Positions 3,028-33,979 of a stretch of DNA of 64,000 nucleotides are shown piece by piece. The DNA is taken from the NCBI GenBank assembly GCA_019752595.1, contig JAIELV010000001.1:618394-682393 (forward strand). Reading direction: 5' to 3'. This stretch comes from Patescibacteria group bacterium (GTDB taxonomy: Bacteria; Patescibacteriota; Minisyncoccia; Phycocordibacterales; Phycocordibacteraceae). Made by a program: the position numbers and the translations under genes. Below the pieces are notes generated by a model. It was not told the origin of the DNA. It saw only the letters and a list, made by a program, of their open reading frames with translations, and made no database searches. Within the stretch, counting starts at the first letter, position 1. Each line of letters begins with the position of its first letter.

Positions 3028-4305
3028 ATGTTTGATCTCAAAACAATAAACCTCGTGATGGAACAGCTCGCGGAAGAACGCGGCATCCCGAAAGAAAAAA
3101 TGCTTGAAGCGATTGAAGGCGCTCTTGCAACTGCATACAACCGAGAATACGGAAAGCGCGGACGCGTGGTGCGTGCTCACTTTGATATGTCGACAGGCAG
3201 TGTGGACTTCTACCAGATAAAAACTGTTGTTGACCCGAACGAAGTGTACATGGACGAGCCTGAAGAAGTTGGAAAGAAGAAATATGACGCCCCAGGAGAT
3301 GTGGAAGACGAGAAAGTGCACTACAACGAGGAAAAACATTTATTCGTTGAAGACGCGAAGCGTATTAAACGCGATGCAAAAATTGGAGATGAAATAGTCT
3401 TCCCTCTTGAAAAGAAAACCGATTTCGGAAGAATTGCTGCACAAACTGCAAAGCAGGTCATTATGCAGAAAATCCGCGAAGCAGAACGCGCATCAGTGGT
3501 GCAAGAGTTCGGCGGTAAAGAAGGCGACATCGTACACGGAGTCGTGCAACGCATTGAACGCGGGAACTTGTACATCGACCTTGGGCGCGCAACAGGCATC
3601 ATGCCGTACCACGAGCAGATTCCTGGTGAGCGTTACCGCCCAGGAGAGCGCATTCGTGCGTACCTCTTCTCAGTAGAAGAAGGCATGCGCGGCGTTTTCC
3701 TTCGCCTTTCACGTTCGCACCCGAAGTTTTTGGAAAAACTTTTTGAACTTGAAGTGCCCGAGCTCGCAAGCGGTTCAGTGCTTATCAAAGCAGTTGCGCG
3801 TGAAGCTGGGGGAAGATCGAAAATTGCCGTACAAGCAACTGATGAACGTATTGACCCTGTGGGCGCTTTGGTAGGTCAGCGCGGCGTTCGTGTTTCAACT
3901 GTCATGAGTGAGCTTGGAGGAGAGAGGATCGACATTATTGAATGGTCTGAAAACACTGTGCAGTTTATTGAAGACGCACTCTCCCCTGCAAACGTTCTTT
4001 CAGTTACTCTGAACGAAGAAGACCGTCGTGCGAAAGTTGAAGTCTCTGAAGACCAGCAGTCGTTGGCGATTGGTCGTGGAGGTCAGAACGTGCGCTTGGC
4101 AGCAAAACTCACTGGGTGGTCTATCGACATTCAGGCAGTTGGCGGTAAAGCACCTGAAGAGAGTGTGACTGCAGACGCGGAAACCGCAACGCCAGTTGTT
4201 GTTGATGAAAACGAGGGCGACGCTATTGGACTCCCCGAAGAAGCAGTGGAGGAACAAAAATCTGATATCGTGGAAGAAGGAGAAAATTCTGAAGTTAAAA
4301 ACTAG
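3028..4305 (+). CDS. nusA: Transcription termination/antitermination factor NusA
   Basis: 425 aa with NusA N-domain, S1 and tandem KH domains, and an acidic C-terminus. An AAGGAGG Shine-Dalgarno sits 8 nt upstream. Confidence 0.93.
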   Translation: MFDLKTINLVMEQLAEERGIPKEKMLEAIEGALATAYNREYGKRGRVVRAHFDMSTGSVDFYQIKTVVDPNEVYMDEPEEVGKKKYDAPGDVEDEKVHYNEEKHLFVEDAKRIKRDAKIGDEIVFPLEKKTDFGRIAAQTAKQVIMQKIREAERASVVQEFGGKEGDIVHGVVQRIERGNLYIDLGRATGIMPYHEQIPGERYRPGERIRAYLFSVEEGMRGVFLRLSRSHPKFLEKLFELEVPELASGSVLIKAVAREAGGRSKIAVQATDERIDPVGALVGQRGVRVSTVMSELGGERIDIIEWSENTVQFIEDALSPANVLSVTLNEEDRRAKVEVSEDQQSLAIGRGGQNVRLAAKLTGWSIDIQAVGGKAPEESVTADAETATPVVVDENEGDAIGLPEEAVEEQKSDIVEEGENSEVKN

Positions 4306-4324
4306 CATCTAAAACCTGACACAT

Positions 4325-4855
4325 ATGAACTTGTGGCATGACATTGAACCAGGCGAGGCTGACGCGATGAACGTCATCATCGAAACTCCAAAAGGTTCTC
4401 ACAACAAATACGAAATTGATAAAAAAACAGGACTCATTAAATTGGATCGTGCGAATTATAATTCCGCTCCGTATCCTTTTGACTACGGTTTTGTACCGCA
4501 AACGTACTGGGAAGACGGCGATGCTTTGGACGTGATGGTGCTTTCCACGTTCCCCTTGTTTCCTGGCGCATTGGTATCTGTTCGCCCTGTAGCTCTCATG
4601 GAAATGACCGACGATGGTGATTCTGACAACAAAATTGTTGGCGTTCCTGTTGACGACAGACGCTGGGACGATGTTAAAGACGTGACCGACCTCAATGCGC
4701 ATGGACTCAAGGAATACAAAAACTTCTTTGAAACATTGAAGATGCTCAAATCGAAGCCCGCGGTAGTCACGGTGCATGGGTTTAAACCTGCTTCGGATGC
4801 AAAAGCTGCCTTTGCTCATTCTTTGGATCTCTACAAAAAAGAGTTTAAGAAATAA
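4325..4855 (+). CDS. ppa: Inorganic pyrophosphatase
   Basis: 176 aa, family I PPase. Conserved motifs include DGDALDV and YGFVPQT. Confidence 0.9.
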   Translation: MNLWHDIEPGEADAMNVIIETPKGSHNKYEIDKKTGLIKLDRANYNSAPYPFDYGFVPQTYWEDGDALDVMVLSTFPLFPGALVSVRPVALMEMTDDGDSDNKIVGVPVDDRRWDDVKDVTDLNAHGLKEYKNFFETLKMLKSKPAVVTVHGFKPASDAKAAFAHSLDLYKKEFKK

Positions 4856-4868
4856 CCGATCCCCAAAA

Positions 4869-4895
4869 CCCCCCTCCAAAAGAGGGGGGTTTTTG
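4869..4895 (+). terminator. Rho-independent terminator after ppa
   Basis: The stem cccccctc pairs with gagggggg around a caaaa loop, followed by a tttttg tail. Confidence 0.75.
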
Positions 4896-4996
4896 AAAGT
4901 TTCCCCACTGTATTCCGTCTTCAGAAATAGGCTTCGGGGGTATACTGACCGAAGACGAGCTCTTCTACTATTATTTATTTTTAATACACAGACTCT

Positions 4997-5710
4997 ATGA
5001 CAGCATCCTATAAAGTGACCGTGGTTTCTCTTCTTTCAGTGCTTATGTTATTTGCCTTTGCATCATTTGCATACGCTGAAGATACGGCAACAACCGCAGG
5101 AACCGCCGAAACGGGCACAACAAATACAGGTACGCCTCCACCGCCCCGCCCGCCGAAACCTTTGCCTGGCGCAATGCAAGAGCGAAAAGAAAATATGCAG
5201 GAGCGCGCAGCAACTATTAAAGAGAACATGCTTGAGCGCGCCTCGACAACTAAAGGCAATATCCAGGAACGCAAAGAAAACAGAATTGAGAATCGTGATG
5301 AGCGCGTAAAGATGGCAACAAAAAGACTTGGCTCCTTGGTGATGGCGCACATCGAGAGAATTGGAAAGATGATTGACCGCATACAGTCACGTGCAGACAA
5401 ACTACAGGCTAGTGGCGCAGATACGGCATCGGCTGAAGCAGACCTCGCCTCTGCAAAGGCAAAACTTGCCGAAGCAAAAACAAAATTGAGCGCACTTTCT
5501 GCAACGGCAATATTTATCTTGAACGCAAATTCCCTCGCAGCAGCATCCGAAAGTATCACCACATCAAAAGCGGCGTTTGAAGAGGTTCGTGGACTCATCA
5601 AAGAAGCGCACGACCTCATGCGGAGCGCAGTTGAAAAACTGAAATCTGCGGCGCAAGCAGCAGGGCTTGGTACAAACGAAGCCGTACAAAATTCAGAACC
5701 TCAGCAATAA
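4997..5710 (+). CDS. Secreted repeat-containing coiled-coil protein (hypothetical)
   Basis: 237 aa with signal peptide MTASYKVTVVSLLSVLMLFAFASFAYA. It carries reiterated ENMQER / ENIQER / ENRIENRDER heptad-like motifs and an Ala-rich helical C-terminus. The antisense ORF 5008..5619 is rejected. Confidence 0.6.
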   Translation: MTASYKVTVVSLLSVLMLFAFASFAYAEDTATTAGTAETGTTNTGTPPPPRPPKPLPGAMQERKENMQERAATIKENMLERASTTKGNIQERKENRIENRDERVKMATKRLGSLVMAHIERIGKMIDRIQSRADKLQASGADTASAEADLASAKAKLAEAKTKLSALSATAIFILNANSLAAASESITTSKAAFEEVRGLIKEAHDLMRSAVEKLKSAAQAAGLGTNEAVQNSEPQQ

Positions 5711-5734
5711 TTTAATAACTAAACTCGAAATTGT

Positions 5735-6061
5735 ATGACTATGGACCAAATGACCCCCGCCCCAGCACCTGCCCCCGAAATGCCGAAGAAAGAGGGCGGA
5801 ACGGGAGGTGTGATCGCGATAATTGTCATCGTAGTGCTTCTCGCACTTGGTGGTATCTATTACCTCATGACTTCAGGCAGCGCAATGCTCCCTGTGGACG
5901 AGGCTATGCCAACAATGCAGGAAGTGCAAAATTCAAACGACCCTGATGTGCAAGCAACAATGCAACAGGGCTCGTCTGACGCACTTGCGGACATAGAGGC
6001 TGATATGGGCTCAACTGACTTCACTAGTCTTGATGCCGAAATCAACAATCTCGGTCAATGA
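5735..6061 (+). CDS. Small single-pass membrane protein (hypothetical)
   Basis: 108 aa with a Pro-Ala N-terminus, one strongly hydrophobic helix and an acidic C-terminus. A strong terminator follows. Confidence 0.5.
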   Translation: MTMDQMTPAPAPAPEMPKKEGGTGGVIAIIVIVVLLALGGIYYLMTSGSAMLPVDEAMPTMQEVQNSNDPDVQATMQQGSSDALADIEADMGSTDFTSLDAEINNLGQ

Positions 6062-6074
6062 TTTGAACGAAAAA

Positions 6075-6108
6075 CGCCCAGCCCTCTTAGCGAGGGCTGG
6101 GCGTTTTT
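6075..6108 (+). terminator. Rho-independent terminator
   Basis: 12-bp stem cgcccagccctc / gagggctgggcg followed by ttttt. Confidence 0.85.
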
Positions 6109-6139
6109 AATTTTGAGCGAAACACGGTAGTATTGCCCG

Positions 6140-7201
6140 ATGCAAACGAAAAAAGACATAAAGAAAAATGCCGAGGTTTCGATAACAGGCGCTTTGCCGA
6201 AAGATACAGTTGCGGCTCACGTAGAAAAAACACTCTCAAAAATACAGAAAGATATTGCGATGCCAGGCTTTCGCAAAGGGAAAGTCCCTCTGGCAAAAGT
6301 GCGTGAATCTGTGGGAGAAAAAGCCCTTTGGAGGGAAGCTGCTGAAAGCGCGCTGAACCAGGAGCTGGAATCAATACTCAAAGAGCATGATGTGATGCCG
6401 ATTATGCCCGTGGGCGCAGCACTCAAACCAAGTGATGTTGATGCTGATGTAGAGTTTGAAATTATTGCTGTTGTTGCCCCCACGTGCTCGATTGATGACT
6501 ATAAATCAGTTGCGGAAAAGGCGATTTCGAAAATGCCGAAGTTAGACGAAGAAAAAGAGATAGAAACAGCAAAGACAGCACTTCGCGCACAGGCTCGTGC
6601 CATGACGAAATCAACTGGCGATGGCCCGTTAACTGATGAAGAAGCAAAGATTCTTGGATTTGAAAATGCGACCGCTTTTGAATTCTTTTTGACAGGAGAA
6701 GCCGAACATGCAGTCAAAGACCGTGAAATTCAAAAGAAACGCGGGGCTATCGCTGAGGCGCTTATTGAAAAGGGGGCATGCAGTATTCCGAACGTCCTCA
6801 TCGGCGAAGAAGCTATGCGTCTACTGGATGCCACAAAAAAGGACATTGCTTCGCAGGGACTTCCTTTTAATGACTACCTCAAGCAAACTGGAAAAACCGA
6901 AGAGCAGATTCGTGATGAACTGAGGACGCCAGCAGAAAAACGCGTTGCGCTCGACGTTATATTCGCCCAAATTGCGAAGAAAGAAGAAGTGAAGCTTGAT
7001 GCTGCAGAAGAAGACCGCCTTGCACACGCACTTCAGAGTCAGGGCGTTGACCATGAAACCGCTCACCGCTACATCCGTTCCGTCACGATGCGCGAAAGAG
7101 TGTGGGAAATCCTCGGTGTGAAAGCACTCTCTCGTGAATCCACTGAAAAACCAGCAGAATCCGAAGCTGAAGTTACTGAAGAAACAAAAACCCCCGCATA
7201 A
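6140..7201 (+). CDS. tig: Trigger factor, short form probably lacking the PPIase domain
   Basis: 353 aa. The ribosome-binding signature GFRKGKVP is present and the C-terminal chaperone arm is recognisable. It is about 80 aa shorter than canonical trigger factor. Confidence 0.75.
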   Translation: MQTKKDIKKNAEVSITGALPKDTVAAHVEKTLSKIQKDIAMPGFRKGKVPLAKVRESVGEKALWREAAESALNQELESILKEHDVMPIMPVGAALKPSDVDADVEFEIIAVVAPTCSIDDYKSVAEKAISKMPKLDEEKEIETAKTALRAQARAMTKSTGDGPLTDEEAKILGFENATAFEFFLTGEAEHAVKDREIQKKRGAIAEALIEKGACSIPNVLIGEEAMRLLDATKKDIASQGLPFNDYLKQTGKTEEQIRDELRTPAEKRVALDVIFAQIAKKEEVKLDAAEEDRLAHALQSQGVDHETAHRYIRSVTMRERVWEILGVKALSRESTEKPAESEAEVTEETKTPA

Positions 7202-7212
7202 GCGGGGGTTTT
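7191..7212 (+). terminator. Rho-independent terminator overlapping the tig stop codon
   Basis: cccccgc-ataa-gcggggg followed by tttt. Confidence 0.8.
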
Positions 7213-7225
7213 AAGATCACCGAAA

Positions 7226-7480
7226 TTAACAATCTCGGCGAACTATATTGAATCGTCTCGATGCGTCGTCAGGGAAATTAGTCGACTCAGGTAAGTCGTC
7301 TAAGTATCCGTTTCTATCAAGACCGCAAATTGCTTCTGCAAAGCCTTCCCGCTTCGCCTCAACAAGTGCACTTTCCTGAGCTGCTGCATGCCTTCGAGCG
7401 AGCTCTGTACCTATTCCAATACCTGCGGTAGAAGCAACCCCTAACATAGCGAGTGTGAGAAACTCTTTTCTTTTTAGCAT
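7226..7480 (-). CDS. Small secreted/lipo-type protein (hypothetical)
   Basis: 84 aa with an N-terminal hydrophobic signal-like segment. It sits between two terminators. Confidence 0.4.
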   Translation of the reverse strand: MLKRKEFLTLAMLGVASTAGIGIGTELARRHAAAQESALVEAKREGFAEAICGLDRNGYLDDLPESTNFPDDASRRFNIVRRDC

Positions 7481-7636
7481 AGGTTTTATTTATCTTTTAA
7501 TAAAGTCGACCTTACCTAGGTATTGAAGATAGTAGCACGCGATTTCAATATTGTCAAGATTAATTACCAAAATATTTCTTAAATGAGCTTATTTATCAAC
7601 GTTTTTTCTATATAGTAAATATTTTGTTATAAACTA

Positions 7637-7665
7637 TTGACACAAATATACGTTTGATATACAGT
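7637..7665 (+). promoter_or_regulatory. Promoter of TrmB paralog 1 (TTGACA-N17-TACAGT), near-leaderless
   Basis: TTGACA at 7637-7642, and the ATG lies only 8 nt after the -10 box. TrmB paralog 2 at 11583 has the same architecture. Confidence 0.5.
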
Positions 7666-7673
7666 GGATTCTG

Positions 7674-8447
7674 ATGAAAAAAACAGAAAATAAACTTAAA
7701 GAATCACTGATTTCTTTGGGTCTTTCCGACAAAGAAGCATCTGTATACTTGGCGCTTTTGGAGCTTGGCCGCTCAACAGTTTCAAAAATTTCCCGTAAAG
7801 CAGACGTGAATCGTGCAACGGGGTACGTTATCTTGGATTCTTTGGTAAACATGGGTCTTGCGCATATATCTGGCAAAGAACCGAAGCAGGAATACACAGC
7901 TGAATCCCCCGATAACCTCGTGCGTCTGTTACGCGAAAGGAAAACAAAAGCGGAAACGGCTTTGGTGACCGCGGAAGCGCTCGCACTGGAATTGAAATCT
8001 ATACAGAAAAAAGAAGACCGTCCTCAGGTTAAGTTCTATGAGGGTATTGAAGGAATGAAACAGGTGTATGAAGATACCCTCACTTCATCTGAAACGATAC
8101 GCGCCTACGCTGCGGTTGAAGATGTGCACAGCTTATTCGGAAATTATTTTCCTACGTATTACAAGCGCCGCGCCGGAAAAGGCATCAGTATCCGTGCAAT
8201 ATTCCCAGACACCCCCGCATCAATTGAGCGCGCAAAGCTAGACTCGGAGGAAGCGCGAGAGAGTGTGCTTGTGCCGAAAGAAAAATATGAATTCCATCCC
8301 GAAATCAACATCTATGACAACAAAATAATGATTGCCTCATGGCGCGAAAAGCTCGGCATTATTATTGAGAGTAAAGAAATTGCCGAAGCAATGAAAACTG
8401 TTTTTGAACTTTCTTGGATCGGAGCGAAGCACGTTGCGCGCAAATAA
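7674..8447 (+). CDS. TrmB-family transcriptional regulator (paralog 1)
   Basis: 257 aa with an N-terminal winged HTH (LGLSDKEASVYLALLELGRSTVSKISRKADVNRATGYVILDSL) and a C-terminal TrmB-type domain. It shares long identical blocks with paralog 2, including QVKFYEGIEGMKQVYEDTLT and WREKLGIIIESKEIA. Confidence 0.8.
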   Translation: MKKTENKLKESLISLGLSDKEASVYLALLELGRSTVSKISRKADVNRATGYVILDSLVNMGLAHISGKEPKQEYTAESPDNLVRLLRERKTKAETALVTAEALALELKSIQKKEDRPQVKFYEGIEGMKQVYEDTLTSSETIRAYAAVEDVHSLFGNYFPTYYKRRAGKGISIRAIFPDTPASIERAKLDSEEARESVLVPKEKYEFHPEINIYDNKIMIASWREKLGIIIESKEIAEAMKTVFELSWIGAKHVARK

Positions 8448-8478
8448 ATACTACCTGCAGTCTTGTAGCATGTCATCA

Positions 8479-8494
8479 TGTTACCATGGTAACA
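8479..8494. promoter_or_regulatory. 16-bp perfect palindrome TGTTACCATGGTAACA (copy a)
   Basis: Lies in the convergent intergenic space between TrmB-1 and the ABC ATPase. A related copy sits at 19667-19682 in the YerC/sigma promoter region. Confidence 0.4.
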
Positions 8495-8532
8495 CGGTGG
8501 CACCTCACAGGTATGCAGTAGGTTGTCTACTA

Positions 8533-9333
8533 CTATCGAGCAATCATTTCCTCTTCGAAGTCAGCAACTTTTGCCTCTAACTTCTCTACAACCCCTGCAA
8601 TAGTCAATTTCTTTTTTCCCTCACCTGACGCTTCAAACACCACCCGCCCTCGTTCAAGCATTATCAGCCTGTCGCCGTACTTAATTGCGTGATGGATGTT
8701 GTGAGTAATCATGAGTGTCGTTATGTTGTGTTTCCGCACCTCATTGTCAGTCATCCGTAATATTTGTTCAGAAACCCGCGGATCAAGTGCGGCGGTATGC
8801 TCGTCAAGCAATAACAGTTTTGGTTTAATCATGGTCGCCATCAGAAGCGCGACTGACTGCTTTTGCCCTCCTGAAAACAGACTCATCTCGGTTTCAAGTC
8901 TTTTTTCAAGCCCAATTCCGAGAGGCTTCAAAAGTGCCTCAAATTCTGGCCGCCATTCTTTCCGCACTCCTTTCCCTAAGCCTGCTCCGACAACGCGCGC
9001 CTTAGCCATTGCAAGATTTTCCGCAAGCGTCATTGAGGGAACAGTGCTCTCATTCGGATTCTGACGTACGCGAGACACATATGCAGCACGGACGTGCTCG
9101 TCTAAATGGTCAATGCGTGCACCATCAAGAATTATTTTCCCCGAAGTAAGTTCAAGGGAGCCCGCAATCGCATTAAATAGTGACGATTTTCCTGCGGCAT
9201 TTGAGCCGACAATAGTGACGAATTCCCCGCGCTTCAAAGAAAGCGACATATGGTCGAGTGCAGTCACCTCCCCCGCAGTAGCAGGGTTGTATATCTTATA
9301 TAAATTATCGAGTATTAAATATTCGTTTTCCAT
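8533..9333 (-). CDS. ABC transporter ATP-binding protein (COG1101-like)
   Basis: 266 aa with Walker A GSNAAGKSS, an ABC signature LFSGGQKQ and Walker B LLLLDEHTAALD. Confidence 0.88.
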   Translation of the reverse strand: MENEYLILDNLYKIYNPATAGEVTALDHMSLSLKRGEFVTIVGSNAAGKSSLFNAIAGSLELTSGKIILDGARIDHLDEHVRAAYVSRVRQNPNESTVPSMTLAENLAMAKARVVGAGLGKGVRKEWRPEFEALLKPLGIGLEKRLETEMSLFSGGQKQSVALLMATMIKPKLLLLDEHTAALDPRVSEQILRMTDNEVRKHNITTLMITHNIHHAIKYGDRLIMLERGRVVFEASGEGKKKLTIAGVVEKLEAKVADFEEEMIAR

Positions 9334-10189
9334 ATGTTATGTACCGCTCTCCGTCTTTCGCCATTATTGCGAAAATAACAATGAGCGCGGTAATTAGCTT
9401 CAAATCGGTTCCAGCAAGCCCCAACCGAAGCGCGATATTTACTATGAACTGATAGAGTACGGAACCGACAATTATCGCGAGCGTTACGGTGGCAATTTTT
9501 CGGGACGAAAGTATTGCTTCGCCGAGCATCAAGGCCGCGAGCCCGAGAATAATGTTACCAATACCCATGTTCACATCCGCAAAGCCCATGTATTGAGCAA
9601 ACAGCGCGCCCGCAAGCCCCATCAAGCCGTTACTTATAACAACACCTGCAAATTTCGTAACATTCGGATTGATGCCGAACGAACGCGCCGTTGCCTCATT
9701 GTCACCAGTTGCGCGCACCTGTAGTCCAAAACCTGTCGAGAGAAACCAATCAATAAAAAATTTTGCAAAGACAACAATAGCAAATAGGACTGCAATGAGT
9801 GCGACATGATTGAACGGCGCCTGCATAACGCCCATAACCGTTTCCTGATTTAGTAGCGAAAGATTGGGGCCATCCATCAGTCGAAGATTTATAGTATAGA
9901 GAATGCCGAGCGCAAGGATGCCCGAAAGAATCTTCTCTATACCCAAGACTGTGTGCAGAAATGCCGTCAGAACGCCCGCGCAAAGCCCTGCCACAAGCCC
10001 GACAAGAAGCGCCGTTTCACCGGGCACTCCGCTCTGTATCGCGAGAGCCGCGGCGGCGGCTCCGGTTACGAAACTTCCATCTACAGAAAGATCGGGGTAA
10101 TTGAGAACTCGAAACGTGAGAAAAACCCCAAGCACAATGAGCCCAGTTAAAAGCCCGAGCTCAAGGGAGATGAAAACTAAATCAACCAT
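9305..10189 (-). CDS. ABC transporter permease (COG4120-like)
   Basis: 294 aa and polytopic. It overlaps the downstream ATPase gene in the usual operonic way. Confidence 0.8.
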   Translation of the reverse strand: MVDLVFISLELGLLTGLIVLGVFLTFRVLNYPDLSVDGSFVTGAAAAALAIQSGVPGETALLVGLVAGLCAGVLTAFLHTVLGIEKILSGILALGILYTINLRLMDGPNLSLLNQETVMGVMQAPFNHVALIAVLFAIVVFAKFFIDWFLSTGFGLQVRATGDNEATARSFGINPNVTKFAGVVISNGLMGLAGALFAQYMGFADVNMGIGNIILGLAALMLGEAILSSRKIATVTLAIIVGSVLYQFIVNIALRLGLAGTDLKLITALIVIFAIMAKDGERYITYGKRIFNTR

Positions 10190-10207
10190 TACCCTTCAGG
10201 ATACAAC

Positions 10208-11191
10208 CTACTCGTAGACTTTTTTCGCACTTGCCAGGACGTCTCCGGGAATGGTAACCCCAAGCATTTTTGCGGTTGTTGTGTTCAGGAAGACATCGGC
10301 GTCGGTAACACCAAGGACAGGGATGCCTGCGGGAGCCTCACCATTAAGAACGCGGATTGCGATTTCTGCCGTACGAACACCTACATATTTGTAATTCGTG
10401 CCGAGCGTTGCAAGTGCGCCTTTTTCAACACCCGATTCATCAAGAGAAATCAGAGGTTTCTTACCGTCAAGCGCAACCTTAATTAACGATTCTTGAGCAG
10501 CAACAACGGTATTGTCGGGGAGCATGTAGAAAGCATCAATTTTTGAAACAAGAGAACGTGCCGCCTGGTTTACTTCCGTCCCAGTATTTGCGGGTGCCGT
10601 TATAATTTCAAATCCGAACTCTTTTGCATACTTTTGAGCTTGCTCGAGTGCGAAGCGCGCATTCGCCTCACCTGGGTTATAGACAATGCCGATTTTCTTT
10701 GCAGTTGGAACCAGTTTTTTCAAGAGCTCCAGATGTTCTCTGTAAAGTGTGATGTCTGAAGTCCCAGTAACATTTGCGCCTGGGGCTTCGTTTGAGACAA
10801 CTAACCCTGCAGTTACCGGGTCAGTAACGGCACCAAAAACAATCGGCGAATCTTTAATCAAATTCACCACCGCCTGGCTTGCCGGAGTTCCTAAAGGCAT
10901 GAAAATGTCGTAACCTGAGGATGCAAACTTCTGCGCTATTGCCGCATTTGCACTGTTATCACCCTGCGCGTTTTGAATGTCGTAGGTAATTGTCTCGCCC
11001 TCAACGTACCCAGCGTTTGCAAATCCTTCTTTAATGCCTGAGATCACCATGTCAAAAACAGGGTGCGAGGTAATTTGTGAAATACCAACAGTTATCGGCG
11101 CGGACGGGCCCGTATCTTTTTTTGATGTCGCAAACCAGGCAAGGCCACCAAGGACCACAACGGCAACGAGAACCCAAATAATGTTTTTCAT
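10208..11191 (-). CDS. ABC transporter substrate-binding protein (COG2984-like)
   Basis: 327 aa with an N-terminal signal/anchor and a periplasmic-binding-protein fold. It is the first gene of the three-gene operon. Confidence 0.8.
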   Translation of the reverse strand: MKNIIWVLVAVVVLGGLAWFATSKKDTGPSAPITVGISQITSHPVFDMVISGIKEGFANAGYVEGETITYDIQNAQGDNSANAAIAQKFASSGYDIFMPLGTPASQAVVNLIKDSPIVFGAVTDPVTAGLVVSNEAPGANVTGTSDITLYREHLELLKKLVPTAKKIGIVYNPGEANARFALEQAQKYAKEFGFEIITAPANTGTEVNQAARSLVSKIDAFYMLPDNTVVAAQESLIKVALDGKKPLISLDESGVEKGALATLGTNYKYVGVRTAEIAIRVLNGEAPAGIPVLGVTDADVFLNTTTAKMLGVTIPGDVLASAKKVYE

Positions 11192-11267
11192 AAATTGAAT
11201 TAATCTTTAATTAGCTCGATACCTTATATATACATATTACTCCAGGGCTTCGGCGGATAAAGTCCGA

Positions 11268-11504
11268 TTAAATTCCACGCCCTTTTGGCCACATGCGTCG
11301 CTCTGGAAGAGAAGCGACGGCTTCCTCTCCAAAACGAGCAACAAGTTGTTCCTTCAATTGAACACTGAGGGCATCTACGCTGATTGGCTTAACGATTGGG
11401 GCGCCTTCCCTAGCCTCGGCGGCGTGAGCACTTTTTTTCATAAAGTTTTTACTTAAGTAACTAAAGTCTATGCCGAATATATCATTCCAATAATAACTTG
11501 TCAA
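11268..11504 (-). CDS. Possible small leader ORF upstream of the ABC operon (or non-coding leader)
   Basis: A 78-aa ORF lies inside a ~250-nt 5' leader. The leader is transcribed from a TTGACA-N17-TATATT promoter at about 11485-11513 on the minus strand. Confidence 0.2.
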   Translation of the reverse strand: MTSYYWNDIFGIDFSYLSKNFMKKSAHAAEAREGAPIVKPISVDALSVQLKEQLVARFGEEAVASLPERRMWPKGRGI

Positions 11505-11582
11505 TATTTTTCGTCAATTTTTCCTTTATTTGTATTTAGTTGAATAGAAATCTTGTATTTTTAATATTTTTGTGGAATTAAA

Positions 11583-11611
11583 TTGACACAATCTCATGGC
11601 TCTAGTACACT
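11583..11611 (+). promoter_or_regulatory. Promoter of TrmB paralog 2 (TTGACA-N17-TACACT), near-leaderless
   Basis: TTGACA at 11583-11588 and TACACT at 11606-11611, with the ATG at 11619. Confidence 0.5.
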
Positions 11612-11618
11612 CTCAATC

Positions 11619-12407
11619 ATGGGTAAACGAGAGGAACAATCCTTAGACACATTGCTTTCTTTCGGGCTCTCGAAGAAAGAAGCCGGAGTGTACATTGCGC
11701 TCCTCGGACACGGGCGCGGAACGGTATCCCAAATCTCACGAAAAGCCGGAATCAACAGAACGACGGGGTACGACATCCTCGCTTCTTTAGCACGGGCGGG
11801 TCTTGTGCGTGTTTCCGGGAAAGAACCGAAACAAGAATATGTAGCTGAATCTCCGGATAATTTGTTGAAACTTCTGAATCGCCGCCTCAGAGAGACTGAA
11901 GAAAGTATACACAAAGCGAAAGATTTTATTCCTGAATTAAAATCACTCCATAAAATTGACGACAGACCGCAAGTAAAATTTTACGAAGGGATTGAAGGGA
12001 TGAAACAAGTATACGAAGATACGCTCACCGCAACGGAGACGATACATGCGTACGCAAATTACGATGATATGCATGCGACCTTGGGCGACTATTTTCCTTC
12101 GTACTACAAACGACGCGCGGCAAAGGGTGTATACGCAATCGGAATCGTACCTGCAACTCCACTCGCGAAAGAGCGCGCTGCAAAAAACACTGAAGAAAAT
12201 CGTGAACTAACGCTTACCCCGCTGGAAAAATTCAACATCTCGCCTGAGATAGATATATATGACAACAAAACGGTTTTTGTTTCGTGGCGGGAAAAACTCG
12301 GCATTATTATTGAGAGCAAAGAAATAGCAGACGCAATGAAAAACATTTTTACACTTGCACAAGGAGAAGCGAAGCGTTTAGAGAAAGAAGCGGGGCTTAA
12401 TCTCTAG
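11619..12407 (+). CDS. TrmB-family transcriptional regulator (paralog 2)
   Basis: The ORF-track start at 11583 is the TTG of the -35 box. The ATG at 11619 (MGKREEQSLDTLLSFGLSKKEAGVYIALL) aligns with the paralog-1 start. Confidence 0.8.
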   Translation: MGKREEQSLDTLLSFGLSKKEAGVYIALLGHGRGTVSQISRKAGINRTTGYDILASLARAGLVRVSGKEPKQEYVAESPDNLLKLLNRRLRETEESIHKAKDFIPELKSLHKIDDRPQVKFYEGIEGMKQVYEDTLTATETIHAYANYDDMHATLGDYFPSYYKRRAAKGVYAIGIVPATPLAKERAAKNTEENRELTLTPLEKFNISPEIDIYDNKTVFVSWREKLGIIIESKEIADAMKNIFTLAQGEAKRLEKEAGLNL

Positions 12408-12672
12408 ACCCGCGAGCAATAGTTTTTATGTCTTTTTCGTAGTATCGAACCTCAAAAAGTTCAGCAAGGAGCGCCCGATTTACGTAATCAAACAAACGAC
12501 TGTAGAGAAGCGAGTCATCCGAGGTTTGAATTCCATCCTGACGACGTATCCGTTTCAGCTTACGAACGCCTGCATTTATGACTGCGTCGCACTGTTTATC
12601 AATCTCATTTGTTTCCATGACCTTCAAGGCACTCACAAAATTCTCCATGTCAAAGCTGCGTAGCGAAACCAA
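12397..12672 (-). CDS. Hypothetical protein
   Basis: 91-aa ORF between TrmB-2 and clpP, with charged composition and no recognised domain. Confidence 0.3.
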   Translation of the reverse strand: MVSLRSFDMENFVSALKVMETNEIDKQCDAVINAGVRKLKRIRRQDGIQTSDDSLLYSRLFDYVNRALLAELFEVRYYEKDIKTIARGSRD

Positions 12673-12698
12673 AGCAACTGGAGTATAGTTATTGAACT

Positions 12699-13301
12699 AT
12701 GGCACACAACATCACCAATCAGCTTGTTCCGATGGTCATTGAGAAGACCACGATGGGCGAGCGCGCATACGACATTTATTCACGCCTCTTGAAGGAGCGT
12801 ATTATTTTCCTTGGCGGACCGATTGACGACCACCTCGCTAACCTCATCATCGCCCAACTCCTCTTTTTGGAATCTGAAGACCCGAAGAAAGATGTCTACC
12901 TCTATATAAACTCCCCTGGTGGTTCTGTATCTGCAGGTATGGCAATTCTCGACACCATGAACTACGTGAAGCCCGACATCGCGACCGTGTGCGTCGGTAT
13001 TGCAGCGTCAGCGGCGGCGGTTATTCTCTCAGCTGGCAAGAAAGGCAAGCGCTACACCCTCCCGAACTCGGAAGTCATGATTCATCAGGTGATGGGTGGG
13101 GCCGAAGGTCAGGCAACGGACATCGCTATTGCGGCAAAACACATTCTTCGCACCAAGGACAACCTGAACAAGATTCTTGCCAAGAACACTGGTAAAACGG
13201 CTGCTGAAGTAGAGAAAGACGCAGAACGCGACTATTGGATGACAGCGGATGAAGCTAAAAAGTACGGGATTATAGACGAGATATACAAAACCCGCTCCTA
13301 A
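12699..13301 (+). CDS. clpP: ATP-dependent Clp protease proteolytic subunit
   Basis: 200 aa. The catalytic Ser motif GxSxG is present in [11 protein letters not shown], and His and Asp are conserved. Confidence 0.93.
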
Positions 13302-33343: not shown

Positions 33344-33979
33344 TTGCCGTCTTTATATAGGCGAGCGGACAAAAAATATTTTATGGCAGTAGTAAAACAC
33401 AGCGCCCAGCGTGTGGCGGTATTCATCGACACGCAAAATTTATATCACAGCGCTAAAAACCTGTACCGTGCGCGCGTTAATTTTGCAGGCGTTTTGAAGG
33501 AATCGGTTGCAGGCAGAATCCTCATTCGTGCGATGGCGTACGTTGTCACTACGGAATCAGGAGATGAGAAAGCATTTTTTGATGCACTGACGAAGATCGG
33601 CATTGAAACAAAAACAAAAGACCTCCAGATTTTCTATGGTGGCGCAAAGAAAGCCGACTGGGACGTTGGTATGGCGGTTGATGCGGTAAAGCTTGCACCA
33701 CGCTTGGATGCAGTCATTCTTGCGACAGGTGACGGCGATTTCGTTCCTTTGGTTGAATACCTCAAAAACAGCCACGGCATTCAGGTTGAAGTCATTGCCT
33801 TCGGAAAATCCGCATCGCAAAAACTGAAAGAAGTTGCCGATGATTTTATTGATATGTCGATTGATCCAAAGAAATTCCTTATTGGTAAGAACTTCTTTTC
33901 AGCTGCTGCTGAAGCAATAGGCGGAGAAAAGGATGAGCCTGAGATTGAAGGCGAGCCGAAAGTGGTCGGAGCGGACTAG
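33344..33979 (+). CDS. NYN-domain (LabA-like, PIN-fold) protein
   Basis: Core VAVFIDTQNLY...DWDVGMAVDAV...ILATGDGDFVPLV. The probable start is MAVVKH at 33383. Confidence 0.7.
   Translation: MPSLYRRADKKYFMAVVKHSAQRVAVFIDTQNLYHSAKNLYRARVNFAGVLKESVAGRILIRAMAYVVTTESGDEKAFFDALTKIGIETKTKDLQIFYGGAKKADWDVGMAVDAVKLAPRLDAVILATGDGDFVPLVEYLKNSHGIQVEVIAFGKSASQKLKEVADDFIDMSIDPKKFLIGKNFFSAAAEAIGGEKDEPEIEGEPKVVGAD

Follow-up and report, generated by a model that had tools for sequence, protein, structure and literature searches.

Anciently diverged TrmBL2-like regulators in a Patescibacteria genome: candidate tandem modules of regulator and divergent cargo

INTRODUCTION

The characterised regulators of the TrmB family returned by our literature search were archaeal without exception, and no paper linking TrmB to the Patescibacteria (candidate phyla radiation, CPR) was found in a full-text search that left many subscription journals outside it. 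Here, a 64,000 nt stretch of a Patescibacteria genome (assembly GCA_019752595.1, contig JAIELV010000001.1, positions 618,394 to 682,393; referred to below as the window) was investigated, in which four genes encode TrmB-family proteins. Two of these, designated P1 and P2, lie in direct orientation on either side of a minus-strand ATP-binding cassette (ABC) transporter operon. The closest described systems are TrmBL2 for the architecture of these two proteins, and TrmB and TrmBL1 for family, recognition residues, autoregulation and control of ABC transporters.

TrmBL2 (PF0496/TK0471 of the Thermococcales) is the most conserved TrmB paralogue of its clade (PMC4158304) and has been described as an archaeal chromatin protein and global repressor (PMC3031468, PMC4158304). 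P1 and P2 have the same domain architecture and length, likewise without a sugar-binding subdomain, but whereas TrmBL2 coats both coding and intergenic DNA, their control regions imply a specific operator that covaries with the protein; they also differ from TrmBL2 in their bacterial host, their sigma-70-type promoters and their predicted leaderless mRNA. TrmB, TrmBL1 (Tgr) and halobacterial TrmB share with them the PF01978 winged helix with a conserved tyrosine and the residue that follows it, corresponding to Y50 and D51 of TrmB, which are listed as DNA-binding residues (PMC4158304). Tgr has been suggested to regulate its own gene, and binding to its own promoter is known for VNG1451C (PMC4158304). 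These regulators bind sequence-specific promoter sites, and TrmB controls an ABC importer operon. Sugar-sensing TrmB (~340 aa) possesses, however, a C-terminal sugar-binding subdomain that is absent from P1 and P2 (257-262 aa), and its site is the TGM TATCAC-N5-GTGATA, in contrast with an 8-mer placed 5 bp 5' of the -35 box in two phased divergent promoters.

In TetR-tetA, in MarR-type pairs and in the GalR, AraC and DeoR loops the regulator is divergent from its target and the operators lie in the shared intergenic region. Integral-turn spacing of operators in TetR/GalR/AraC/DeoR-type systems suggests cooperative binding or looping, as it does here. The TrmB genes differ from these classic divergent repressor pairs in protein family, in having their predicted operators between the -35 boxes and not over the -10 box or the transcription start site, and in a cargo that varies from genome to genome. 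The operon between P1 and P2 has the gene order of the TrpXYZ/TCDB 3.A.1.34-type importer (COG2984, COG4120, COG1101), and its substrate-binding protein (SBP) is TrpX-like although it falls below the equivalog cutoff; unlike TrpXYZ, it is preceded by a conserved 57-aa ORF and a TrmB-type control region, with no T-box or other Rfam leader.

From the comparisons described below we consider it probable (roughly 0.6) that P1 and P2 are anciently diverged TrmBL2-like regulators in tandem, insulated modules, each regulating its own gene together with a divergent cargo gene. The features of the window on which this reading rests are listed in Table 1.

Table 1. Position of the regulators, control elements and neighbouring genes in the window
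Feature	Position	Strand	Remarks
sORF84, divergent partner of P1, 84 aa, N-terminal hydrophobic segment	7226..7480	-	No Pfam family
P1-module divergent promoter: TTGACA 7557..7552, N17, TACTAT 7534..7529	7529..7557	-	TG before -10
O-(P1), 8-mer TTGGTAAT	7563..7570	-	5 bp 5' of divergent -35; predicted operator
O+(P1), 8-mer TTGTTATA	7624..7631	+	5 bp 5' of P1 -35; predicted operator
P1 promoter: TTGACA(CAA) 7637-7642, N17, TACAGT 7660-7665	7637..7665	+	-10 ends 8 nt before ATG 7674
P1, core TrmBL2-like regulator, 257 aa	7674..8447	+	Recognition helix NRATGYVILDSL (V52); Pfam TrmB E=6e-16
Variable cassette: ABC operon, sORF57, P2, orf91	8426..12658		4.2 kb without counterpart in L084
ABC ATPase (COG1101-type)	8533..9333	-	PF00005 E=3e-27
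ABC permease (BPD_transp_2, COG4120-type)	9305..10189	-	PF02653 E=6e-26
ABC substrate-binding protein (ABC_sub_bind, TrpX-like)	10208..11191	-	PF04392 E=7e-81, 272 bits
sORF57, conserved small protein between divergent promoter and ABC operon	11268..11441	-	C-terminus ERRMWPKGRGI
P2-module divergent promoter: TTGACA 11504..11499, N17, TATATT 11481..11476	11476..11504	-	Extended -10 TG, 11/12 match
O-(P2), 8-mer TTGACGAA	11510..11517	-	5 bp 5' of divergent -35; predicted operator
O+(P2), 8-mer TTGTGGAA	11570..11577	+	5 bp 5' of P2 -35; predicted operator
P2 promoter: TTGACA(CAA) 11583-11588, N17, TACACT 11606-11611	11583..11611	+	-10 ends 7 nt before ATG 11619
P2, core TrmBL2-like regulator, 262 aa	11619..12407	+	Recognition helix NRTTGYDILASL (D52); Pfam TrmB E=3e-16
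orf91, between P2 and clpP, near right cassette edge	12397..12672	-	No Pfam match
P3, diverged TrmB paralogue, 238 aa	29764..30480	-	Promoter TTGATT, N17, TATATT, ~30-nt leader
P4, diverged TrmB paralogue, 254 aa	33976..34740	-	Without the core 8-mer/TTGACACAA architecture

RESULTS AND DISCUSSION

Bidirectional control regions and predicted leaderless starts

A scan of GTDB species representatives gave 80 loci with a P1/P2 orthologue (57-83 % identity), from records titled Uhr-, Doudna-, Kerfeld-, Jackson-, Zambryski-, Giovannoni-, Taylor-, Nomura- and Yonath-bacteria and 'Paceibacterota'; L-numbers (L003, L084 and so on) denote loci of relatives compared with the window. Together with the window, and with two copies in some loci, these provided 83 orthologues whose control regions were compared.

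All but one of the 83 orthologues were preceded by an 8-mer, N5, TTGACA, N16-18 and TAnnnT, with the consensus aATtTTGTgGAAaa.taTTGACACAAat. In the 73 aligned sites the TGT at positions -12 to -10 from the -35 box and the A at +7 were invariant and the C at +6 was found in 66, whilst the information content of the N5 and of the spacer between -35 and -10 was approximately zero. An earlier note on this DNA had described P1 and P2 as having the same near-leaderless promoter. Both promoters are real and their type is clade-wide, but the upstream 8-mers differ (TTGTTATA vs TTGTGGAA) and this difference tracks a residue of the recognition helix (V vs D), so that the two promoters are not the same.

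The gap between the -10 box and the ATG was 6-9 nt in 63 of the 83 orthologues (exactly 6 nt in 36), whereas only 23 of 162 other promoter-like sites in the same loci lay at ≤10 nt from a start; leaderless expression is therefore predicted to be a conserved trait of the TrmB orthologue gene. In the window the -10 boxes of P1 (8 nt) and P2 (7 nt) end at the distance of ~6-8 nt that leaves no room for a Shine-Dalgarno sequence. A literature search on leaderless genes in Patescibacteria returned nothing relevant. About ten orthologues that appear to be exceptions keep the canonical operator and promoter, but have 60-770 nt of extra DNA between the -10 box and the ATG, and no known RNA family was found in these inserted leaders.

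The inserted DNA is of several kinds. An element of ~70 nt occurs between the canonical -10 box and the ATG at L021 (~790-860) and at L031 and L046 (both ~9930-10000), in two specificity clades; it has no Rfam match, and its long closing stem, cccgttagaaaat...attttctaacggg, terminates at the start codon. The element is perhaps a mobile insertion, or else a structured 5' leader in place of the leaderless start. GC-rich ccctcc/ggaggg hairpin repeats are inserted between the operator/promoter and the TrmB ORF at L013, L022, L032 and L053, and a GIY-YIG-type ORF occupies the same interval at L010 (2273-3086). A group I intron (RF00028, 62.7 bits) was met at L056 (14828-15124) during the RNA-family scan.

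On the other side of the 8-mer, a divergent promoter was detected 5' of TrmB in 69 of 73 orthologues (upstream TGTCAA), in the form of a minus-strand TTGACA-N14-TGnTATAnT with an extended -10. The distance from one -35 box to the other was 64-66 bp at 15 loci, 76-77 bp at six, 84-89 bp at 46 (exactly 85 bp at 30) and 95 bp at one, so that all but two of the 69 fall into the first three classes. These values are helically phased, a period of 10.25-10.5 bp fitting best (R=0.84 with every value included; with unique values only, R=0.70 and p ~0.001), and the 8-mers that face each other between the -35 boxes are ~40, 51 or 61 bp apart, or roughly 4, 5 and 6 helical turns; the centres of O- and O+ are separated by 61 bp at P1 and by 60 bp at P2. 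The two sites thus seem to be kept an integral number of turns apart, which makes cooperative binding, by a loop or an oligomer, probable.

The promoter divergent from P1 has a homologue at the same position in the orthologue loci, and the gene that it faces, sORF84, has a homologue (46 % identical) in the same place at L084. In V-type orthologues the minus-side site reads TTGGTAAT, TTGGTACT or TGATAAT, whilst D-type orthologues with the ~85-bp spacing typically have TGACGA there, as at P2 (the types are defined below). The 5' untranslated region of the sORF84 transcript contains, on the plus strand at 7503-7519, the sequence TCGACCTTACCTAGGTA with the 10-bp palindrome TACCTAGGTA; this element is conserved in L083 and L084 and does not occur in L003 or L085.

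A position weight matrix (PWM) of the control region was run over 1.37 Mb, comprising flanks of ±10 kb per locus, so that distant targets fall outside its scope. The motif was found essentially only at the orthologues and at two paralogue promoters (L045 and L053), both leaderless too. The extra sites comprised three promoters split from their gene by insertions and seven weaker matches (14.6-19.3), several of them at adjoining divergent promoters, and no other sites that would point to a wider regulon were found in these flanks. The intergenic DNA of the window contains only four cases of 8-mer-N5-TTGACA followed by a -10 box, namely the plus and minus promoters of P1 and P2. The earlier note had proposed to look for an operator motif shared between the paralogues and the ABC operon; the 8-mer architecture, a candidate operator, is common to P1, P2 and the ABC-side promoter and is absent from P3 and P4.

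Covariation of the recognition helix with both 8-mers

Residue 52 is the position that follows the conserved G-Y in the recognition helix and is aligned with D51 of TrmB. Its identity was compared with the 8-mers of the same orthologue. The 57 orthologues with D or E had TGTGG(A/G)A in 53 cases and TGTCG in four. All nine orthologues with V had TGTTATA, TGTTGTA or TGTTAAT, the 12 with H had TGTTGAT, TGTTCxx or TGTTAAA, both of those with S/T had TGTCTAT, and the two with N had TGTTGAA and TGTGAAT. TGTGG was present in none of the 25 non-D/E orthologues, a distribution of the kind expected of a co-evolving operator in an autoregulated divergent pair. The minus-side 8-mer shifted in parallel, to TGACGA(A/T) with D, TG(G/A)TAAT with V, TGAT(T/C)AT and similar sequences with H, and TGACTA(T/A) with S/T.

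On a neighbour-joining (NJ) tree the non-D states formed ~10 separate lineages, with the S/T pair L024 and L073 standing apart from each other. P1 is V-type and P2 is D-type, and loci with two core copies always differ at residue 52 (V and D in the window, D and V in L042, H and N in L061).

The covariation of residue 52 with both 8-mers suggests that the TrmB protein binds both elements through its recognition helix, with residue 52 reading the variable bases, and that it would thereby autoregulate its own gene and co-regulate the divergent cargo. The proposed module would be portable and would consist of a cargo gene on the minus strand, a TrmB gene on the plus strand with a predicted leaderless mRNA, and between them a control region with two divergent sigma-70-type promoters, each carrying its 8-bp element exactly 5 bp 5' of the -35 box. 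The window would hold two such modules, sORF84-P1 of V-type (TTGTTATA/TTGGTAAT) and ABC operon plus sORF57-P2 of D-type (TTGTGGAA/TTGACGAA), and the circuits of P1 and P2 are probably insulated because both the specificity residue and the operators differ.

A different reader of the 8-mers can be imagined: RNA polymerase itself, by way of an extended or tandem -35, an alternative sigma factor or some other transcription factor, with the covariation serving as a mere clade marker. The O-(P2) sequence TTGACG is a good -35 box, and a promoter TTGACG-N16-TATTAT was called there; more generally, 8-mer-N5-TTGACA resembles a 13-bp direct repeat of -35-like boxes, and phylogenetic non-independence is still contained in the covariation counts. 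Against this, TGTTATA, TGTCTAT and TGGTAAT are poor as -35 boxes, the changes follow residue 52 in ~10 lineages and on both sides at once, L024 and L073 included, and the motif occurs only at TrmB genes in the 1.37 Mb scanned. We regard such a reader as quite improbable.

Some of the same observations, and others, weigh against binding and control by the adjacent TrmB protein. The covariation is partly confounded by phylogeny, with an NJ tree that is rough at ~60 % identity, and the binder could be another TrmB paralogue in place of the adjacent one. The partner half-site of each 8-mer is ambiguous: the palindrome TTGTG-N12-CACAA applies to the D-type plus side only, the reading as a 13-bp direct repeat (TTGnnG-N7-TTGACA) fits both sides, and a further candidate -35 box is scored at O-(P2), namely TTGACG. 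The 8-mer is centred near -44.5, where activators bind as often as repressors do, and either activation or repression would fit this position. Finally, 44 of the 68 divergent first ORFs are singletons, so that co-regulation may be no more than a by-product of genome compactness. As a general operator a simple palindrome, TTGTG-N12-CACAA, is doubtful; it fits the D-type plus-side sites, but neither the minus-side sites nor the specificity bases.

Fold and relationship to archaeal TrmB proteins

The four genes that the earlier note had assigned to the TrmB family are indeed all members of PF01978 (P1 58.5, P2 59.3, P3 59.8 and P4 32.1 bits; cutoff 25.6 bits), and tblastn revealed no fifth copy across the 64-kb window. 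P1 has more than 2,500 homologues, very many at 60-66 % identity, and where names were given these were Patescibacteria, Parcubacteria or 'bacterium'. P1 and P2 belong to one orthologue group, with ~60 % identity across the Patescibacteria (Paceibacterota).

The AlphaFold2 (AF2) model of P1 (pLDDT 92) comprises a winged helix, a 30-residue helix and an alpha/beta C-terminal domain, with residues 47-59 as the recognition helix. Its best full-length matches in a Foldseek search of the PDB were the TrmBL2 structures 5BQT, 5BPD and 5BOX (E=2e-13, 261-273 columns, 16-18 % identity), and the C-terminal domain also matched PLD3/4 and F13 folds. The modelled fold combines a winged helix, a long helix for dimerisation and a PLD-like domain of the non-catalytic kind, and resembles archaeal TrmBL2 in this succession of winged helix, coiled-coil helix and PLD-like domain, in the lack of a sugar-binding subdomain and in its length (~264 aa in TrmBL2). 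No second Pfam domain, and no sugar-binding subdomain, was found in the window TrmB proteins. Y51 is ≥90 % conserved, and when P1 is aligned to 3QPH with phmmer its Y51-V52 falls on Y50-D51 of TrmB.

The NCBIfam equivalog models were far from satisfied. With the TrmBL2 model (NF041141, cutoff 530) P2 scored 18.3 bits and P1 gave no match, and with those of sugar-sensing TrmB/TrmBL1 (NF040851, NF047390 and NF047392) the scores were 18-53 bits vs cutoffs of 500-650; the latter models align only with the N-terminal ~130 residues, the window proteins being 238-262 aa long vs ~340 aa. P1 and P2 therefore share the architecture of TrmBL2 but are not TrmBL2 orthologues.

The resemblance raises the question of whether the core proteins are themselves non-specific nucleoid or chromatin proteins of the TrmBL2 kind, in which case the conserved upstream DNA would be the strong promoter of an abundant protein and not an operator. 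The structural match, the length (257-262 vs 264 aa) and the missing sugar-binding subdomain are what such a role would lead one to expect, as are a sequence conservation as high as that of housekeeping genes and two promoters that are both near-consensus. The score of 18 bits against a cutoff of 530 speaks against it, however, as does the control region: neither the invariant TGT nor the 8-mer is part of the -35 or -10 box, and their G/C bases set them apart from UP elements; one residue of the recognition helix covaries with both 8-mers, and the spacing of the promoters is helically phased. We consider a purely non-specific role unlikely, although a specific autoregulatory site would be compatible with additional non-specific binding.

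Age of the two copies

P1 and P2 had been taken for near-identical products of a recent duplication that share long identical blocks. In a gap-free alignment 152 of the 257 residues were identical (59 %), whilst the DNA was 62 % identical overall and 41 % identical at third codon positions, with 20 nt as the longest identical run. The shared blocks, such as RPQVKFYEGIEGMKQVYEDTLT, exist at the protein level only and are motifs invariant across the family. P3 and P4 were 21-32 % identical to P1, P2 and each other. Of 94 columns that were ≥90 % conserved among 47 database orthologues, P1 kept 93, P2 87, P3 36 and P4 32, and both P1 and P2 are under purifying selection.

Each copy also has separate orthologues in other genomes, those of P1 at L003 and L083-L085 (81-88 % identity) and those of P2 at L047 (72 %) and L030 (68 %), the latter two directly 5' of clpP. 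The duplication is old, with saturated synonymous sites. A recent duplication was rejected on these grounds. An assembly artefact, in which a collapsed or duplicated repeat made the second copy, was a worry of the earlier note that does not apply at 62 % nucleotide identity with saturated third positions; in addition, both copies keep the family-invariant residues, and the P1 protein, which is identical to NCBI K2P56_03760, is also present on independent Logan contigs. The chance of an artefact is practically negligible.

Variable cargo between tig and clpP

The gene content of the relatives indicates that the two TrmB genes flanking an ABC operon are two tandem modules, module 1 consisting of sORF84 (-) and P1 (+) and module 2 of the ABC operon with sORF57 (-) and P2 (+). 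In a blastn comparison with L084, the closest relative found (trigger factor 91 % and ClpP 98 % identical), the window was collinear at 3106-8425 (77.6 %) and 12659-13277 (84.9 %), with nothing between. The 2.6 kb that L084 has in this slot contain a minus-strand radical SAM gene and, on the plus strand, another TrmB paralogue (32 % identical to P1), and the layout of L085 is the same; between tig and clpP, L083 has just one gene, of the P1 type. Module 2 therefore sits in a cassette slot between P1 and clpP that relatives fill with other cargo-plus-TrmB pairs.

The radical SAM cargo gene of L084 is at 5423-7042. The non-core paralogue that replaces P2 has a control region of a different layout (L084 7130-7215, L085 10215-10300), with two back-to-back -35 boxes that make up a perfect palindrome, TTGAC-TTTT-GTCAA, and a TTGTTGAT-N5-TCGACAA element 3' of the -10 box, just before the ATG. 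At L042 (2-3273) two core TrmB copies in direct orientation flank a minus-strand Peripla_BP_6 gene (397 aa), a second, independent case in which the D-type copy precedes the V-type copy, the reverse of the order in the window.

Among the divergent partners of core TrmB genes, radical-SAM/SPASM enzymes were the most frequent; they accounted for ten of the 48 longer ORFs, and a SPASM domain was present in five of these ten. Peripla_BP_6 SBPs were found in this position at L011, L042 and L071, and other recurrent partners were zinc-ribbon proteins and two three-member clusters of membrane proteins, one of which had a below-cutoff match to NMN_transporter (PnuC-type). The radical-SAM ORFs were those of L008, L015, L044, L045, L050, L066, L067, L081, L007 and L034.

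The ABC operon and sORF57

The ABC operon has the identity and the minus-strand position between P1 and P2 that were originally ascribed to it (Table 1). Its order of SBP, BPD_transp_2 permease and ATPase genes is the same in L086-L089, and SBP homologues of 50-77 % identity were found on other contigs. With the NCBIfam TrpX model (NF041285) the SBP scored 263.2 bits, below the equivalog cutoff of 390. In L088 and L089 the orthologous operon has class-I Trp/Tyr-type tRNA synthetase genes (PF00579) as neighbours, the PF00579 and YbaK-like tRNA_edit genes lying at L088 1981-3141 and 13786-14253 and at L089 1180-2370; these neighbours fit the putative Trp/Tyr substrate annotation of the operon.

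Upstream of sORF57 and the ABC operon no promoter other than the divergent one of the P2 module could be recognised, and no promoter-like or terminator-like site was found in 11192-11270, between sORF57 and the SBP gene, so that sORF57 and the ABC genes are predicted to be co-transcribed. P2 probably controls both, because O- lies 5 bp from that promoter (11504..11476) and because no such site intervenes before the SBP gene, the link being particular to this genome. Neither a Trp T-box nor any other RNA leader was detected in 11100-11700 by Rfam (no match at gathering threshold or at E≤1), and the fold of the ABC leader was not significant (z=-1.48); an RNA leader or riboswitch 5' of the ABC operon was rejected accordingly.

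The earlier note had seen in the locus a hint of regulatory control of transport, which in its strongest form would mean that two near-identical regulators, recently duplicated in tandem, jointly control a Trp/Tyr-type importer between them. For P2 alone the idea is locally plausible, as it shares a bidirectional control region with the ABC promoter, and P1 and P2 do flank the operon in direct orientation with a common promoter type; SBP genes, moreover, recur as divergent partners of core TrmB genes at L011, L042, L071 and L030. The partnership is not a conserved one, however. The window SBP and permease were found by tblastn in none of the 80+ orthologue loci, and no TrmB gene lies within 7 kb of the orthologous ABC operon in the four genomes that have one (L086-L089; SBP 56-74 % identical), on which grounds a conserved regulon of TrmB and the COG2984-type ABC operon was rejected. 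Joint control is further weakened by P1 itself, which is convergent with the operon, is paired with sORF84 as a divergent partner of its own and differs in specificity residue and operator; with a protein identity of only 59 %, third codon positions at 41 % and separate orthologues for each copy, we judge it very improbable.

sORF57 is a conserved small protein and not merely a leader. Among the 85 loci the only homologue found was sORF62 of L030, and a HMMER scan of the full library added P0243. The P2-type gene of L030 is divergent from this sORF57 homologue (9635-9823, minus strand), which ends in LRWPPRGRGI and is followed by a Liv-type ABC operon. P0243 (L090 73-249, plus strand; 58 aa) is 55 % identical to sORF57 with the same C-terminus, ERRMWPKGRGI, and lies in a contig of 59 % GC directly 5' of a B12-binding radical SAM gene and a BPD_transp_2 permease. 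sORF57 may act as a regulatory peptide, of the arrest or leader kind, or may be the precursor of a modified peptide.

Wider reading and its significance

A broader and more tentative proposal, to which we give rather less than even odds, is that the clade-wide combination of an archaeal-type regulator, a leaderless start and a phased bidirectional promoter acts as a portable 'expression socket' for exchangeable cargo. ABC importers, PnuC-like transporters, radical-SAM/SPASM enzymes and small peptides such as sORF57 would be plugged into the divergent side, and whole cargo-plus-TrmB modules would be swapped at hotspots such as the tig-clpP interval. A single residue of the recognition helix would re-programme operator specificity, letting several insulated modules share a tiny genome.

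The Patescibacteria make up a large part of the diversity of bacteria; almost none have been cultured, and recognisable regulators are few among them. If the proposal is true, the TrmB family would be their main dedicated regulation of variable, host-interaction genes, with a readable residue-to-base code. A regulator that is ~60 % identical across classes offers a concrete, testable handle on gene regulation in the CPR, comprising a conserved leaderless promoter, predicted phased dual operators and a specificity pattern of one residue and three bases, and recombinant proteins with synthetic operators would allow tests without culturing. The clustering of TrmB genes in Patescibacteria genomes would be accounted for by tandem cargo-regulator modules, and the tig-clpP interval is flagged as a site of cassette exchange. 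The claim from which the analysis started was by comparison ordinary and partly wrong, the duplication being old and the link to the ABC transporter specific to this genome.

Diverged paralogues P3 and P4

The presence of four TrmB genes had been called striking for a reduced genome. The family hidden Markov model (HMM) detected 30 non-core TrmB paralogues in 1.35 Mb of flanks of the relatives, or 2.2 per 100 kb, compared with two non-core copies in the 64 kb of the window, and 25 of 84 loci had at least two TrmB genes within ~20 kb, some of them four. Four copies in the window are therefore typical of the clade, and the density is not exceptional. A control architecture in P3 and P4 like that of P1 and P2 was rejected on inspection of their promoters. 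P4 is convergent with an NYN-domain gene (33344-33979, plus strand), the 3' ends of the two genes overlapping by 4 nt (33976-33979).

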